Below, piece by piece: positions 6,617 through 61,335 of a stretch of DNA of 64,000 nucleotides. The translations under genes and the position numbers were made by a program. The notes beneath the pieces are model-generated. The model saw nothing but the letters and a program-made list of their open reading frames with translations, ran no database searches and was not told the origin of the DNA. Source of the DNA: Nitrosopumilaceae archaeon (GTDB taxonomy: Archaea > Thermoproteota > Nitrososphaeria > Nitrososphaerales > Nitrosopumilaceae); NCBI GenBank assembly GCA_965207375.1, contig CBDBMG010000002.1:640001-704000 (forward strand), in the 5' to 3' direction. Position 1 is the stretch's first letter; each line of letters opens with the position of its first letter.

Positions 6617-7665
6617 TCATTAAGTACGGTAGTACTTAATAGTAGGGATTGGTAAGAAATTGTACGGCTTCCAGAAAATTTCGTGCTTTAAAAATCAACC
6701 TTGCAATAGGCTTTACCCGAAAAAACCAGCTGGAATGCATTGGTAAGGCTGTAATGATGCTGTACCTTGGTTAAACGAAACGATAAGTCGAATATTTCGA
6801 CCTACAGCCAACTTTGAAAATTTCGAAATTCATCTGTATTTCGTCTGCCAGCCTGCCTGCCTGCCTGCCGTAAGACTGGGTTGCGCTAGGTGTAGGACTC
6901 CAGAAATTTCACACAATAAAGGTAATGGCAGCAGATTTACGAAAATGTTATTCCGAAGATGACTTACCCACTGCGCCATGGCGATTCCCTTTATCCTTCA
7001 TTCCTTTCCTTGTTCTTCTTTATTCCTTAGCAGGGTGCAAATCTCACCAAAGGTGACGATAGCCTGTAATGGCTTCTGCTTATCACGTCACACAAAAACC
7101 TGGCTTGCACATGATATAATCAGTTTAATACAATGGCACGATGTTTTCACATGAACTTCGAGATTATAGCCTTGGACAAATAGCTTTTGTATTTTTCGAG
7201 CGTTATTTGCTATCAGACTGCTATCACACAGCTGCTTTGTCATGTAAGCGTGTTGTTAATAAGCGCCTGTAAACAAGCATAATTATTACTTAAGCACCTG
7301 TAACATTTTGTGCGCCTGCCGAAAGATTATTACGAATGCTTAGCATGTACAAAAAGCAAACAAACTAGAATGATAAAAAATTTAAAATTTAAAAGGTAAG
7401 TAGGGATTGAATTCAATAGTGCTACAAAAAGTAAGGAAAGATTTTGAGACGAGAGAACATACTGGCATGAGATAGCTAATTTATAAAAGTTTAATTCCTA
7501 CTTTTGGCAAACCTATGAGCCAAAAGTAGGGATTAAATTTTTATAAATTAGCTATCTCATGCCAGTATGTTCTCTCGTCCCAAAATCTTATTCCTTGTTT
7601 CCTTACTTTTTGTAGCACTATTGAATTCAATCCCTACTTACCTTTTAAATTTTTTATCATTCTAG
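6617..7665 (+). mobile_element. Family A: non-autonomous Helitron-like element with giant 3' palindrome (full copy)
   Basis: A|TCATTAAG...TTCTAG|T, no TSD. 5' hairpin ATTAAGTAC-GGTA-GTACTTAAT. Palindrome 7365-7665. Confidence 0.85.
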
Positions 7666-7708
7666 TATATATATATATATATATATATATATATATATAT
7701 ATATATAT
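7666..7708. repeat. (TA)n microsatellite
   Basis: Pure TA run. Confidence 0.95.
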
Positions 7709-7730
7709 GTGTGCTCTATGTATAATCCTA

Positions 7731-8246
7731 CTAGAATGATAAAAATTAAAAATTCAAAGGTAAGTAGGGATTGAATTCAATAGTGCTACAAAAAGTAAGG
7801 AAACAAGGAATAAGATTTTGGGATGAGAACATTCTGGCATGAGATAATTTATAAAAGTTTAATCCCTACTTTTGGCAAATCTACTGAAGTGAGCCAAAAG
7901 TAGGGATTAAACTTTTATAAATTATCTCATGCCAGAATGTTCTCATCCTAAATCTTATTCCTTGTTTCCTTACTTTTTGTAGCACTACTGAATTCCTACT
8001 TACCTCTTAAATTTTTAATTTTTTATCATTCTAGTTTGTTTGCTTTTTATACATGCTAAGCATTCATAATAATCTTCACACAAAATCTTACATGCGCTTG
8101 TTAACAACGCGCTTACATGGCAAAGCAGCTGTGTGACAGCAAATAACGCTCGAAAAACAGCAAAACCTATTTGTGCAAGGCTATAATCTCAAAGTTCATG
8201 GTGTAATAGCGAAAAGAAAACATCATGCCACTGTAACTAATTATAT
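7731..8246 (-). mobile_element. Family A, 5'-truncated copy
   Basis: Reverse complement of the family A 3' half, including the full palindrome (7731-8034). Confidence 0.85.
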
Positions 8247-8272
8247 TAAGGTGTAATAAAGTACTACAAAAT

Positions 8273-8826
8273 ATCCGGGTCTGACCCGGACTCTGCACAT
8301 GCGATATTAATGGTGTCGAATTAAGTGTGCCTGAGGGCAACGATATCACAATATCTCCTCAAGATATTTCGAGATGGGTGACTATACATTGGTATTAGAG
8401 GGATTGACTGTATAATTAGAGTATTTTGATGGCGTCCGCTGCGCACTTCGAAAGTTTGTTTATAAAATTAAAATATACTGCTTTTCAGTGATCACTTGTT
8501 GGGAATTAGGATATGATTAGGATTAATGCCGCATGAAAATGTTACACAGGTCATCCAGTAGGGCCCACGCCCAGTTTATGCATGCAAGAAAGCCGAGAAT
8601 ACTATAGATCCTTAACTGTATGGTTAAGGATCTATGAGAATACATACGAATAAAGCTGTGTTTGGTTAATATATAGCCTGCATCTACATGCTGTAACGCA
8701 GAACCAATTAGTAGTGCCCAGAATGTAAGTTTCAGCACACGCCTCTACTTTAATTAAACCGGGCCACATCCGGGTCTGACCCAGATTACTATCCGGGTCA
8801 GTGATGCTGACCCGGTTTCAACCCTG
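8273..8826. mobile_element. Partial non-autonomous DNA element with CCGGGTC..GACCCGG hairpins
   Basis: Repeated atccgggtctgaccc motifs, ending gacccggtttcaaccctg. Confidence 0.4.
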
Positions 8827-58265: not shown

Positions 58266-58369
58266 TATTTTGTGCTACCAGAAGGTACAGCTATATATAG
58301 CTAGCAGAGTAAGGTGTTACACATGCATAATCATTTAGTGCCACTGCATGCAAGATGCGATAATATGCA

Positions 58370-58595
58370 GAGTAAATGTTGCTTACCAGAAGATGTGGTA
58401 ATATAGCAGAGGTACGTGTTGCTTACCAGAAGATGTTGCTTACCAGTACCAGAAGATGCGGTAATATGCAGAGTAAGTGTTGCTTACCAGAAGATGTTGC
58501 TTACCAGAAGATGTGGTATTATGGCAGAGTAAGTGTTGCTTACCAGAGATGTGGTAATATGCACTTATTAGCTATGGCTAATGTGTTGCTTACCT
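58370..58595. repeat. Short tandem repeat (tgttgcttaccagaagatgtggtaat)
   Basis: Repeated units. Confidence 0.8.
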
Positions 58596-58671
58596 AGCAC
58601 ACCATGATCATGCATAAACAACAACATGGGTCTACCTATATAAAGGTGAAGTCAAATGCATAACGTTAATC

Positions 58672-59916
58672 ATGGCTGGTAGTAAGCGCTGTTTTTCTAG
58701 CAAGGAAGCAGAATGCTTCCATGATATTAGTGATGTGAGTACAGTATCACCCATGCGTAAGGGAGGAAAATCTGCTACACCATACTTTGATGGAACTATA
58801 GCTGATGAGAAAGGAACATTAAGATTGTATGACTTTGATTCCAATGTGCAGAGGAAGTTATTTGAAGCTGTAGAAAGCAGTGAAGGAAAGGGTGTGATGT
58901 TAAAGCACTGTGAAGTAAAGCGAGGAAAACATGGAGACGACTTTGAAATAAGCTGTAGCTTTATGTTATACATGCATGTACGTAGCAATACTGAGTAGCT
59001 ACTCACAGTCAAACTATTCATTTCAGGTATTCATTTCAAAATTTACTGAGATTGAAAAAAGTGACAAAGATTATAATGTCAAAGCAAGTCCAGGTGGAAA
59101 GATAATACAACTGAGTGAAATTAATAACCTTATCAATTTCCAACGTATCACATGTCAAGTGAAAGTATTGTCCATAGAAAGTCCAGTTGAAGTACCCGGG
59201 GGAAAGAAAAAACAAGACATTATGATAGGTGATTCTTTAGGAACAACCAAATTGACTATATGGGAAGAAGAGATTGGAAAAATGAAAGAGGAGCAATGCT
59301 ACAAAATTAGTGGAGTAGTAGTTAGGGAGTTTAAGGGTATGAAGTTTTTAAGCACTTTCAAGCAAGATTCATTCATAGCAGAATAAATTAATGATATAGG
59401 GCGCATACAAGAAGATTGTGATTCTGATGACCAAAACAAAGAAGGAAAATACAGGGTATACAACAGCAACAATGTTGTGAAGGTATTTTTATACTGTATT
59501 ATTGCTACCTTTTGCTACCCAATTATACTTGAATCAGGTTGGTAATGCATCTGTGGGTGGAGTTGAGCAGCTGGAAAAATATGCTAGCTGCATTAAGTGC
59601 ACTGCAAAAATACTGAGTGATCAAGATGATCCAGATGTGGGTGAATGTGTCAAGTGTGGGATGTTACAGTGCCTTGATGCTGCTAAAGTTGCATGGCATT
59701 GTTGCACACCTTGTCGTAAAGACAGAAAGTGCTACTGCATCAACCAAGCATCAGTACTTGGCACTGCATGCTTTTGGAGCAACACTGGCAGACATCTCGC
59801 AAACAAATAATGTAGAGAAGATTACTAAGATGTCTTTGCTAAAAGCAAAGCCATTTACAATGTTTTATCACGATGAAATAATACAGTCCATCAATAGGAC
59901 CCTGCAGACGCAGTAA
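58672..59916 (+). pseudogene. RPA-like triple-OB-fold protein with C4 zinc ribbon, intron-containing, disrupted
   Basis: YFDGTIADEKGTLRLYDF; VKVLS...KQDIMIGDSLGTTKLTIWEE..VREFKG..LST; YASCIKCTAK...CVKCG. Introns ~58950-59026 and ~59483-59538; stop at 59384. Confidence 0.75.
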
Positions 59917-60302
59917 TCAACCTGTGCACAGACAGATCGAGTGATAGACACTCAAAATTGATTCATTTTGATTAACTTTAATTTTTTTATATAATAATAA
60001 TGATATTACAAAATGGTCAGTAATACTTAATGAGCTTAAATTCACATAACCGGTTAACTGTATTGTAATTATTTCACTGTAGTAATTTGTCCTATGGCAC
60101 CTACAAAACTTAACATGTATACACAAAACCATTACATGTTTACAAAAATTTAACTAGCACATGTTTTCTATTTCTATTTCAAAGCAAAGTGACGATAATG
60201 GCTTCCGCCACCACTTTTCAGGGATAATGACCAAGGTAACCCCTTTCTAGGAGATATATTGTCGAGGGCCGGTGGAAGAGTTTTTAGGCACTTGATATTT
60301 AA

Positions 60303-61335
60303 CTAGAATGATAAAAAATTAAAAATTTAAAAATAAGTAGGGATTGAATTTTGGATTCAGTAGTGCTACAAAAAGTAAGGAAACAAGGAATAAGATTTTG
60401 GGACGAGAGAACATTCTGGCATGAGATAATTTATAAAAGTTTAATCCCTACTTTTGGCAAACCTATAAAGTGAGCCAAAAGTAGGGATTAAACTTTTATA
60501 AATTATCTCATGCCAGAATGTTCTCTCGTCCCAAAATCTTATTCCTTGTTTCCTTACTTTTTGTAGCACTACTGAATCCAAAACTCAATCCCTACTTATT
60601 TTTAAATTTTTATCATTCTGGTTTGTTTACTTTTTATACATGCTAAGCATTTAATAATCTTTTAGCAGGCACTTACGTAATAATTATGCTTGTTTACAGG
60701 TGCTTGTTAACAACGCGCTTACATGGCAAAGCAGCTGTATGATAGCAAATAACGCTTGAAAAACAGCAAAAACTATTTGTCCAAGGCTATAATCCCGAAG
60801 TTCACGATGTAATAAAGTACACCCGAGTACATCGTGCCACTGTAACTAATTATATCACGTGCAAGCCAGGTTTTGTATGACACAATAAGCAGAAGCCGTT
60901 ACAGGCTATCGTCACCTTTGGTGAGATTCGCACCTTGCTAAAAAATATATAAAGAACAAGGAAAGGAATGAAGGATAAAGGGAATCACCATGGAGCAGTG
61001 GGTAAATCGTCTTCGGAATAACATTTTCGTAAATCTGCCACCATTACCTTTATTGTGTGAAATTTCTGGAGCCCTACACATAGCGCAACCTGGTCTTACG
61101 GCAGGCAGACAAAATACAGGTGAATTTCAAAATTTTCAAAGTTGGCTGTAGGTCGAAATATTCGACTTATCGTTTCGTTTAACCAAGGTACAGCATCATT
61201 ACAGCCTTACCAATGCATTCCAGCCGGTTTTTTCGGGTAAAGCCTATTGCAAGGTTGATTTTAAAGCACGAAATTTTCCCGAAGCCATACAATTTCCTAC
61301 CAATCCCTACTATTAAGTACTACCATACTTAATGA
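60303..61335 (-). mobile_element. Family A full copy
   Basis: Minus-strand A|TC...CTAG|T. Palindrome 60303-60621. Confidence 0.9.

Follow-up and report, generated by a model that had tools for sequence, protein, structure and literature searches.

A Helitron family with a long palindrome flush with its 3' end and recurrent inversion of the palindrome loop

The window, a 64,000-nucleotide stretch of a eukaryotic contig riding inside a 'bacterial' assembly, carries copies of a ~1.05-kb non-autonomous Helitron with a 5' A|TC and a 3' CTAG|T end (the window Helitron family), in which a single palindrome makes up the final 301-335 bp, starting at an internal CTAG and finishing at the terminal CTAG, flush with the 3' end. 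Precise inversion of the loop of this palindrome has recurred many separate times. Loop flipping points to fold-back DNA copying, and we give about even credence to a reading, drawn from sequence comparison, in which the family is a structural variant of Helitron1 whose loop is flipped by sporadic switching.

BLAST of positions 6617-7666 against the window located the copies, whose features are as follows.

6617-7665, forward strand: full-length copy, isomer A; A|TC at 6616|6617, CTAG at 7662-7665, flanking T at 7666
6617-6651, forward strand: 5' end module of this first copy (TC, hairpin, box)
7365-7665, forward strand: 3'-terminal palindrome of the first copy, 301 bp, from internal to terminal CTAG; loop AAACCTATGA at 7509-7518
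7731-8246, reverse strand: 5'-truncated copy, isomer B; palindrome 7731-8034; tail-to-tail with the copy at 6617
9673-10754, forward strand: full-length copy, isomer B; palindrome 10426-10754, loop 10582-10596
12984-13551, forward strand: 5' fragments (family positions 16-188 and 251-504); the next copy abuts them head-to-tail
13548-14843, forward strand: rearranged dual-loop copy; palindrome 14442-14843
14849-15026, forward strand: body fragment of a further copy (family positions ~547-744), from BLAST
15651-15970, forward strand: 5'-truncated copy, isomer A; ~14-20 nt of body plus palindrome 15665-15970, loop 15812-15830
18430-18726, forward strand: 5' fragment (family positions 1-293) without palindrome, 297 bp, from BLAST
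60303-61335, reverse strand: full-length copy, isomer B; palindrome 60303-60621, loop at 60459-60473 on the forward strand

All seven copies and fragments listed by an earlier note on this DNA were recovered by BLAST, and an eighth copy, at 15651-15970 (+), was missing from that list. The palindrome that it credited to a copy at 12977 is actually part of the 13548+ copy, which holds both loops; within 14442-14843 a B loop (14597-14611) is followed by 48 nt of right arm and a short stretch of left arm, after which come an A loop (14683-14695) and a full right arm. Read in element orientation, isomer A is GGCAAACCT..GAGCC (copies 6617+ and 15651+) and isomer B is its reverse complement (copies 7731-, 9673+ and 60303-); for 6617, 9673, 7731 and 60303 this agrees with the earlier assignment. 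The first copy is inserted next to a (TA)21 microsatellite and has a private 12-bp deletion in the left arm of its palindrome. The arms of palindrome 60303-60621 (139 nt) are 99% complementary; where the internal CTAG would stand, read in element orientation, it has a mutated CCAG.

The window Helitron family is Helitron-type, and specifically Helitron1-type, with TC/CTAG ends and A|T insertion without target site duplication (TSD). Among the full-length copies in 2.14 Mb of eukaryotic contigs, the TC start follows a flanking A in 14 of 14 and the CTAG end is followed by T in 13 of 14; most of 34 element tails also end in CTAG, with CTTG variants in subfamily D. At two paralogous empty sites (C2:28592-28710 and C2:343117-343238) the joined flanks align, placing the insertion exactly at A|T with nothing duplicated. 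The end counts and the two empty sites thus bear out the proposal of A|TC and CTAG|T ends lacking a TSD. The 5' module of copy 6617+ consists of TC, a hairpin with a 9-bp stem (ATTAAGTAC-GGTA-GTACTTAAT) and then the box GTAGGGATTG; in full-length copies the hairpin is conserved and begins 3 nt inside the element. The box is present at every 5' end and is repeated, direct and inverted, in the outer palindrome arms (19 matches of the 10-mer in the window against 0.06 expected). The inverse repeat of this 10-12-nt box in the right arm lies ~35-50 nt from the 3' end and is subterminal, not terminal.

The long palindrome is found at the 3' end only, the 5' end having just its 9-bp-stem hairpin. Its arms are 96-99% complementary, with ~150 bp of homology in either register, and the loop is 10-25 nt long, length varying far more in loops than in arms. 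Folded as single-stranded DNA, it forms one hairpin (-164 kcal/mol, z = -39; 0 of 100 shuffles fold as well), the stem being paired out to the region of the terminal CTAG, which is mirrored by the internal CTAG. Copy ends and fold together confirm the ~300-330-bp palindrome ending at the terminal CTAG that had been noticed at the outset. A separate short subterminal hairpin is absent from the family, and the 301-335-bp palindrome reaching the last nucleotide takes that place.

The copy and isomer census covered the eukaryotic contigs C2-C4 (~2.1 Mb); eukaryotic host contigs were also flagged inside several reference 'bacterial' genomes. We tabulated loop orientation in these contigs, as the earlier note had suggested. 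Of 35 oriented palindromes 270 bp or longer, three of them from subfamily D, 17 were A and 17 B, with the dual-loop copy scored by its first loop, and one had a symmetrised loop (binomial p = 1.0). Orientation changed 12 times on a 34-row tree of element bodies, where shuffled labels gave 11.2 on average (393-397 of 500 shuffles were no higher), and 10 times on a 25-row tree, where they gave 8.6 (466-469 of 500 no higher) and four of six sister pairs differed in orientation. These trees are poorly resolved (starred inner branches, 3 of 30 and 1 of 22), and no more than 2-3 changes are forced if one counts strongly supported branches alone. One clade of the 34-row tree, with 98/94 support, includes both orientations. 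Five loop variants of the main subfamily, and subfamilies D and E as well, are each represented both ways round by exact reverse complements, which requires at least seven flips. Since orientation is not predicted by the body tree and seven or more variants exist in both forms, the inversion is recurrent. An innermost-stem marker (GGT..GCC versus GGC..ACC) inverts together with the loop in 7 of 7 copies, and both loop isomers have several descendants.

The arms evolve in mirror. Between subfamilies or genomes, mirrored and single-arm changes numbered 17:1, 18:0, 25:1 and 11:2 in four clean comparisons, or 71 mirrored against 4 single-arm differences; the other four of the eight comparisons had 11-34 single-arm differences, explained at least in part by shortened arms and extraction windows. 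In one lineage, L022, the terminal tetranucleotide was re-templated too (CAAG..CTTG). Imprecise products were also observed, namely a loop turned into a perfect palindrome (C3:734225) and partial right-arm deletions in four copies. A microsatellite has expanded inside one loop. The dual-loop copy and the symmetrised loop are what switching of a polymerase or strand from one inverted-repeat arm to the other typically leaves behind. Among 104 hit clusters there was no integrated body-palindrome-body form, in which two bodies would share a palindrome; in the two tail-to-tail pairs each copy has a palindrome of its own, and the paired palindromes belong to different sublineages.

Long terminal palindromes characterise this host's Helitron lineage, since at least one autonomous Rep/helicase element has one too, as does a second non-autonomous family, F, of like architecture in the same genome (412-bp terminal palindrome). 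The ~2.1 Mb contains three Rep/PIF1 loci. The intact one, on C3, has ORFs of 1190, 631 and 544 aa and an HFH motif, shows no endonuclease domain and ends in a different palindrome of 362 bp; a search for long Rep/helicase-coding elements with the same ends, proposed in the earlier note, thus yielded no autonomous element with the window Helitron family's own ends in 2.1 Mb. In three families the palindrome reaches the 3' terminus exactly or within 1-2 nt. Loop orientation in family F is 18:3, and 7 of 7 copies are alike in a young burst (97-99% identical), a ratio that differs from that of the window Helitron family (Fisher p = 0.0097), while its arms still change in mirror (mirrored to single-arm, 5:0, 7:0, 7:1 and 5:1). 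Family F keeps one orientation yet mirrors its arms, so in these Helitrons a terminal palindrome alone does not give flip/flop at each transposition.

We infer that a DNA strand under synthesis would sporadically switch template between the palindrome arms, so that the loop is copied off the complementary strand and one arm is rewritten from its partner. Candidate occasions in the life cycle would be replication, repair after a break at the hairpin tip and second-strand synthesis on a single-stranded transposition intermediate. Both isomers would remain transposition-competent, and the family may therefore have drifted to ~1:1. In work on quasipalindromes, one event is described as able to mirror several stem changes, homogenise the arms and invert the spacer (PMC8604942; PMC8794818), and template switching is credited with loop inversions and multi-base compensatory changes (PMC8794818). 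Two observations sit poorly with purely generic, sequence-blind switching. It does not predict the rarer visible flipping of family F, whose stability means that a switching model needs selection on F loop orientation or a different fragility, and it leaves unexplained why the palindrome is flush with the 3' terminus, which is a requirement of a self-priming 3' end.

A related possibility, which we regard as rather unlikely, is recombinational repair in place. The hairpin tip would be a break hotspot, and a resected arm would invade the sister, the homologue or a further copy, or else its own partner arm in inverted register; synthesis-dependent annealing would then restore the palindrome with its loop reversed and its arms converted. 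The arms offer ~150 bp of homology, equal in either register, central fragility is suggested by the partial deletions centred on the loop and right arm (four copies) and by the in-loop microsatellite, the loop lengths are much more variable than the arms, and the dual-loop copy could be an aberrant annealing product. However, the stability of family F is as hard to explain by such repair as by template switching, and the sequence of one genome does not separate the two.

The earlier note had favoured a rolling-hairpin transposon, in which the terminal CTAG-3'OH of folded single-stranded DNA primes synthesis and Rep, nicking at the mirrored site, then transfers the hairpin in inverted form, much as parvoviruses such as AAV resolve their termini, giving flip/flop at each cycle. 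What it described held up, that is, the Helitron type, the flush palindrome and two isomers in about equal numbers; its mechanism was an inference, and we consider it improbable in view of family F and the imprecise by-products. The palindrome includes the very last 3' nucleotide, so the 3'-OH would be base-paired, and the flush arrangement recurs in the autonomous element and family F. The ~1:1 isomers without phylogenetic signal, the propagation of both and the re-templating of arms from each other, down to the terminal tetranucleotide in L022, are also as this mechanism would have it. Yet family F held one orientation through its burst (7/7; 18:3 overall) with its arms co-evolving, and flips left imprecise by-products (the dual-loop copy and the symmetrised loop). 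The sequence further implies that after self-priming the mirrored CTAG|T would sit at the old 3' end of a continuous strand, and that regenerating CTAG by transfer would need a nick 5' of the internal CTAG (A|C). We know of no Helitron Rep with A|C nick specificity. Only one end has the palindrome, the 104 clusters contained no body-palindrome-body form, and a 50% flip rate per cycle is not required because at least seven flips suffice for the data. Our literature search found Helitrons paired with rolling hairpins only in a general review.

A single ancient inversion, with two old sublineages, one per orientation, amplified separately, is very improbable and already contradicted. The 2-3 changes forced by strongly supported branches would suit it, but each of the seven loop variants, some of them defined by indels and two of them divergent subfamilies, exists both ways round as exact reverse complements, the 98/94-support clade is mixed and labels are clustered no more than shuffled ones. 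Tracking of loop orientation with two old subfamilies had been set beforehand as the refuting test of flip/flop; we found instead changes like those of shuffled labels and seven variants both ways round. Least credible of all is an assembly or polishing artefact that mis-oriented the loop. Reads wholly within a palindrome do map to both strands, but every copy can be told apart by its flanks and by arm differences of its own, and the two orientations are seen both here and in copies from four other independent assemblies. The inverted segment consistently carries its own stem marker along (7/7), and a wrong-register read would mismatch over the entire 10-25-nt loop.

What the 3' hairpin does in Helitrons is understood only in part, and here a natural lineage has expanded the hairpin 15-20-fold, placed it flush with the cleavage site and kept its arms identical over long evolutionary spans, with either loop orientation tolerated in one family. 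This amounts to a natural experiment on how Rep/helicase reads the 3' end, by stem and repeated 10-nt box rather than by loop. Loop orientation and mirrored arm changes could serve as a sequence read-out of how often an element passes through a folded single-stranded or strand-switching state. The family also offers a concrete candidate in which hairpin-primed DNA synthesis by a eukaryotic transposon could be tested. Since fragility is a property of long perfect palindromes, thousands of such copies could affect host genome stability. It is doubtful that this Helitron lineage primes part of its own replication from a folded 3' end, with the palindrome as an origin or telomere-like hairpin resolved by a HUH Rep to give flip/flop. 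Were this true, it would be the first transposon to use a rolling-hairpin step like that of parvoviruses and would connect Helitrons mechanistically with single-stranded DNA viruses; selection on the F loop or a different Rep would then account for the conserved orientation of family F.

Canonical Helitrons usually have a 16-20-nt hairpin 10-12 nt upstream of the 3' end. The window Helitron family resembles Helitron1 (Helibat/Helraiser) in its TC/CTAG ends, A|T insertion without duplication, non-autonomous derivatives and tandem and truncated copies, and a partner of the Rep (HUH) plus PIF1-type helicase class lies in the same contigs. Helraiser, which also ends in TC/CTAG, is described as having a 19-bp palindrome 11 nt upstream of its end, the loop sequence of which matters for activity, and a 3' hairpin that acts as a terminator (PMC4778049). 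Unlike Helraiser, the elements studied here have a flush palindrome of 301-335 bp (412 bp in family F and 362 bp in the autonomous element), and the window Helitron family has a 5' hairpin, a 10-nt box shared by both ends and both loop orientations propagating. Published accounts give Helitron2 hairpins at its two termini, together with a short inverted repeat that links the 5' end region to a position a few tens of bp inward from the 3' end, and have Helitron2/Helentrons insert at TT or T(T/C) without TC/CTRR ends (PMC5148889, PMC13085455). The 5' hairpin and GTAGGGATTG box may correspond to features of Helitron2/Helentron elements (including DINE-1), whereas the A|T insertion, the TC/CTAG ends and an autonomous element in which no endonuclease domain was seen differ from them.

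Parvoviruses such as AAV are linear single-stranded DNA genomes that carry a hairpin at either end; their parental strand has a defined nick site, and their replicative forms are dimers. The likeness lies in a terminal palindrome that includes the 3'-OH, about equal reverse-complement isomers, paired arms and an HUH Rep in the system; the difference, in a long palindrome at one end only and in a sister family, F, that does not flip at transposition. Quasipalindrome template-switch mutations share the mirrored stem changes, homogenised arms and inverted spacer, and imprecise products are expected of them, but the cases described have mostly short stems, against 150-nt arms at a transposon terminus here. 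Our literature search found no terminal transposon palindrome with 150-nt arms, at least seven flips in one family and both isomers mobile. In chloroplast non-coding hairpins, small loops between inverted-repeat stems have inverted recurrently and homoplasiously, uncoupled from phylogeny. Although these inversions concern an organelle genome, short stems and no mobile element, they resemble those of the window Helitron family in their recurrence.

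Searching the window by BLAST with the first copy (6617-7666) recovered all the copies listed in the earlier note, together with an additional copy at 15651-15970 that it had missed, and the ends, arms and fold of these elements confirm its observation of Helitron-type copies with a terminal palindrome and two loop isomers. The family is non-autonomous and about 1.05 kb long, and its 3'-terminal palindrome of 301-335 bp encloses a short asymmetric loop. Two copies serve as reference points:
Window 6617-7665: copy 1, with TC after a flanking A at the 5' end, CTAG before a flanking T at the 3' end and the palindrome at 7365-7665, from reading of the sequence.
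Window 14442-14843: dual-loop copy, consisting of left arm, loop B, 48 nt of right arm, a short inner piece of left arm, loop A and the full right arm.

The 5' end of the family reads TCATTAAGTA.. and comprises TC, a hairpin with a 9-bp stem and the box GTAGGGATTG. Both outer arms of the GTAGGGATT palindrome that forms the 3' end carry this box again. Among the full-length copies in 2.14 Mb, TC follows a flanking A in 14 of 14 and CTAG precedes a flanking T in 13 of 14. Uninterrupted paralogous sites exist for two copies; aligned with the joined flanks, they place the insertion point precisely between A and T, without any duplication. Complementarity of the palindrome arms is 96-99%, and the 3' end folded as single-stranded DNA gives a single hairpin (-164 kcal/mol, z = -39). 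The palindrome previously ascribed to a copy at 12977 does exist, but it belongs to the 13548+ copy and holds both loop isomers. The palindrome was rejected as an independent MITE, its locus count being close to that of the body and 'solo' palindromes retaining 14-22 nt of body. Two more direct GTAGGGATTG boxes, 44 bp apart at window 3484-3537, lie beyond all BLAST-detected copies and could be a piece of a related family. Copies often lie in or beside (TA)n microsatellites (window 7666-7730; G000:C3:438107-438122; C3:754302 onward), and two tail-to-tail pairs have AT-rich spacers alone between the partners, which suggests that (TA)n is a preferred target.

The source assembly (G000) consists of four contigs, and the window is C3:640001-704000. 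Long ORFs take up 0.78 of the densely coding C1 (2.16 Mb), whereas in C2-C4 (2.14 Mb in total, GC 0.37) long-ORF cover is 0.11-0.19; all 171 family BLAST matches fall on C2-C4 and 0 on C1, and the window has ORFs for reverse transcriptase, RNase H and integrase. We therefore read the window as eukaryotic DNA within an assembly filed as prokaryotic. The eukaryote-like contigs C2-C4 (2.14 Mb) carry retrotransposons as well as Helitrons, and the window itself holds LTR- and non-LTR-type retroelement fragments at 41096-49883 (an integrase zinc-binding domain, an RT-RNase H and two RVT_1 ORFs) and, at 32525-35098, its longest ORF (857 aa), which is without a Pfam match. An inverted repeat at 50221-50602 (105-nt arms, 96% complementary, 172-nt spacer) adjoins a GC-rich segment with reverse-transcriptase ORFs (48001-50000, GC 0.45), and at least six overlapping inverted-repeat pairs at 23516-24317 (arms of 62-88 nt, 83-98% complementary) sit where the window is richest in AT (GC 0.28-0.33). 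Four other assemblies, titled MAGs of Poribacteria, Anaplasmataceae, Acidobacteriota and Binatia, also contain the family (loci among L022-L030). Poribacteria are sponge symbionts. Three sponge-metagenome sequencing runs and one marine run contain no more than 5-10% of the sampled words, which gives no evidence on host or habitat. In these four bacterial-MAG records the copies cluster in limited stretches of large contigs, a pattern suggesting that pieces of host DNA were joined to bacterial sequence or binned with it. The sample comprises 2.1 Mb of host genome and eight loci from other assemblies.

Loop orientation was scored for palindromes of at least 270 bp, oriented by the adjacent body sequence, together with the copy at 15651-15970. 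The resulting 35 copies, 3 of them from the divergent subfamily D, comprise 17 with loop A (GGCAAACCT..GTGAGCC-like), 17 with its reverse complement, loop B, and 1 symmetrised loop (binomial p = 1.0), the dual-loop copy being scored as B by its first loop. The four other assemblies contributed 1 A, 6 B and 1 unreadable loop, in subfamily D there are 3 A' and 5 B', with a 100% duplicate pair accounting for two of the B', and both orientations are present in subfamily E. Two subfamily-D copies, at G000:C3:216672-217922 and C4:34624-35879, share 600 bp of 100% identical 3' flank, reflecting either a segmental duplication of very recent date or redundant assembly of one region.

The earlier note had considered that orientation might simply track two old sublineages, and the loops speak against this. 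Five loop variants of the main subfamily, several of them defined by indels, and the loops of D and E are each found both ways round, one form being the exact reverse complement of the other, which means at least seven independent, precise loop inversions; several variants have more than one descendant for both isomers. A marker in the innermost stem pair, the sole asymmetry usable for telling whole-palindrome from loop-only inversion, turns along with the loop in 7/7 copies. Orientation labels are likewise not clustered on body trees, requiring 12 changes versus 11.2 for shuffled labels (235 columns, 34 rows) and 10 versus 8.6 (752 columns, 25 rows; 4/6 sister pairs differ), although both trees are poorly resolved and their starred branches alone force only 2-3 changes. 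The loop-variant argument is the stronger of the two. Among 41 copies compared, one pair has homologous 3' flanks, 100% identical, and shares its loop orientation, hence is uninformative on flipping; the other flank matches are two tail-to-tail pairs only. As to orthologous loci bearing on flipping in place versus flipping at transposition, the eight other-assembly loci share repeat homology alone with C2-C4, and a metagenome scan for allelic or orthologous copies returned one diverged contig of 1 kb.

The arms evolve together. When the outer 150 nt of divergent subfamilies and other-genome copies were compared with the main subfamily, mirrored and single-arm differences stood at 17:1, 18:0, 25:1 and 11:2, with insertions mirrored too; another four comparisons gave 11-34 single-arm differences, a noise for which truncated arms or the extraction windows account at least in part. 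Even the terminal tetranucleotide has changed in mirror in one lineage (CAAG..CTTG). Arm asymmetries within copies are nearly all private, or lie in ambiguous A/T runs. Independent compensatory mutation cannot yield a mirrored pattern; judged from these comparisons between and within copies, one arm must repeatedly have served as template for the other in the lineage that propagates. Arm divergence (asymmetric/2 = 1.1% plus symmetric 0.6%) against a body mean of 7.5%, three outliers included, does not separate the models, as about 2 Mb were sampled and master-lineage differences look private.

Several copies bear footprints of the process. The dual-loop copy resembles an inversion in which the jump back was misplaced, in the loop at C3:734225 the complement of the left half has taken the place of the right half, giving a perfect palindrome, parts of the right arm are lost in four copies, and in one copy a microsatellite has grown inside the loop. 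At inverted repeats, template or strand switching is known to leave such products; according to PMC8604942 and PMC8794818, it homogenises arms and inverts spacers. In a family copy at G000:C2:419833-420644 a (GCCA)n-type microsatellite has invaded the loop, and the tetranucleotide repeat inside the body has grown to about 166 bp; this body repeat shows a huge expansion at C4:469864-470445.

A second non-autonomous family, F, served as a control, and an autonomous element was found on the same contig as the window:
G000:C2:287757-289397 and about 45 other loci, as suggested by palindrome hit coverage: family F, Helitron-like, non-autonomous, 1.65 kb.
G000:C3 about 312100-321387 (L031, a locus from C3, 3129-12388): apparently intact autonomous Helitron.

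The autonomous element encodes a 1190-aa ORF (DUF6570 and Helitron_like_N, HFH motif; 0 phmmer matches against PDB chains), a 631-aa PIF1 helicase ORF whose 17-nt overlap makes a frameshift or intron likely, and an ORF of 544 aa that carries a ubiquitin C-terminal hydrolase domain. Its 3' end is a 362-bp palindrome of its own, unrelated in sequence to that of the 1.05-kb family and extending to the point where two autonomous copies cease to match; a partial copy, 96% identical, lies at C2:183520-189340. Two loci were rejected as the autonomous partner of the 1.05-kb family. At C2:422.5-425.1 kb, a stop-containing Rep/PIF1 is followed 2 kb downstream by a same-strand family fragment, but the two are separated by nested repeats and the search for a 5' end found none; at C4:380-383 kb, the nearby palindrome-like arms belong to an oppositely oriented copy. 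Family F begins with TC after a flanking A, a hairpin with a 7-bp stem and the 10-nt box GCGAGGCCAA, and ends in a perfect 412-bp terminal palindrome whose outer arms hold the GCGAGGCCAA box and resemble the palindrome of the autonomous element. With the same layout in both non-autonomous families, the architecture, a 5' hairpin and box with a long, box-bearing 3' palindrome flush with the cleavage site, is conserved.

Loops of family F behave differently. At 29 loci, 18 face one way, 3 the other (one a 5-nt remnant) and 8 are unreadable, a flip frequency much lower than in the 1.05-kb family (Fisher p = 0.0097). Seven copies, mutually 97-99% identical, which suggests that F may have been active recently, share a single orientation, as does an older subfamily with a body about 18% diverged. 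The arms of F nevertheless change in mirror (5:0, 7:0, 7:1 and 5:1, mirrored to single-arm). In these Helitrons, then, the arms are symmetrised without loop inversion, and the loop is not randomised by transposition.

The reading that we rate highest, at roughly even chances, is sporadic strand switching between the arms. The switch would occur at chromosomal replication or repair, or while a folded single-stranded transposition intermediate is copied, and with both isomers remaining mobile the family would drift to 1:1. Generic switching explains poorly why F flips far less. In F, loop orientation may be under selection, since the sequence of the loop matters in Helraiser, according to passages in PMC4778049. 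Break repair in an inverted register, a close kin of strand switching between the arms, we regard as unlikely. Less probable again is the rolling-hairpin transposon proposed in the earlier note, in which a HUH Rep would flip the loop by parvovirus- or AAV-like hairpin transfer. Such a transposon would require self-priming, and in three families the palindrome does end on the 3' terminus or no more than 1-2 nt from it; however, transfer at every cycle would split a burst half and half, and the F burst is 7/7 in one orientation. The imprecise by-products (dual-loop and symmetrised copies), the presence of a long palindrome at one end only and the finding of no dimer-like integrated form among 104 hit clusters also count against it. 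Moreover, after self-priming the mirrored site between CTAG and T would be the old 3' end, and a transfer regenerating CTAG would need an A/C nick 5' of the internal CTAG, which neither known Helitron cleavage site would fit.

In the paper library searched, no Helitron is reported to end in a palindrome hundreds of bp long or to have flip/flop loops. The 1.05-kb family shares with Helitron1 the 5' TC, the 3' CTRR and insertion between A and T without a TSD, and departs from it in the short subterminal hairpin. Helitron2, as portrayed in passages of PMC5148889 and PMC13085455, differs in its target and ends, whereas the 5' hairpin and subterminal inverted box of the family described here are reminiscent of it.
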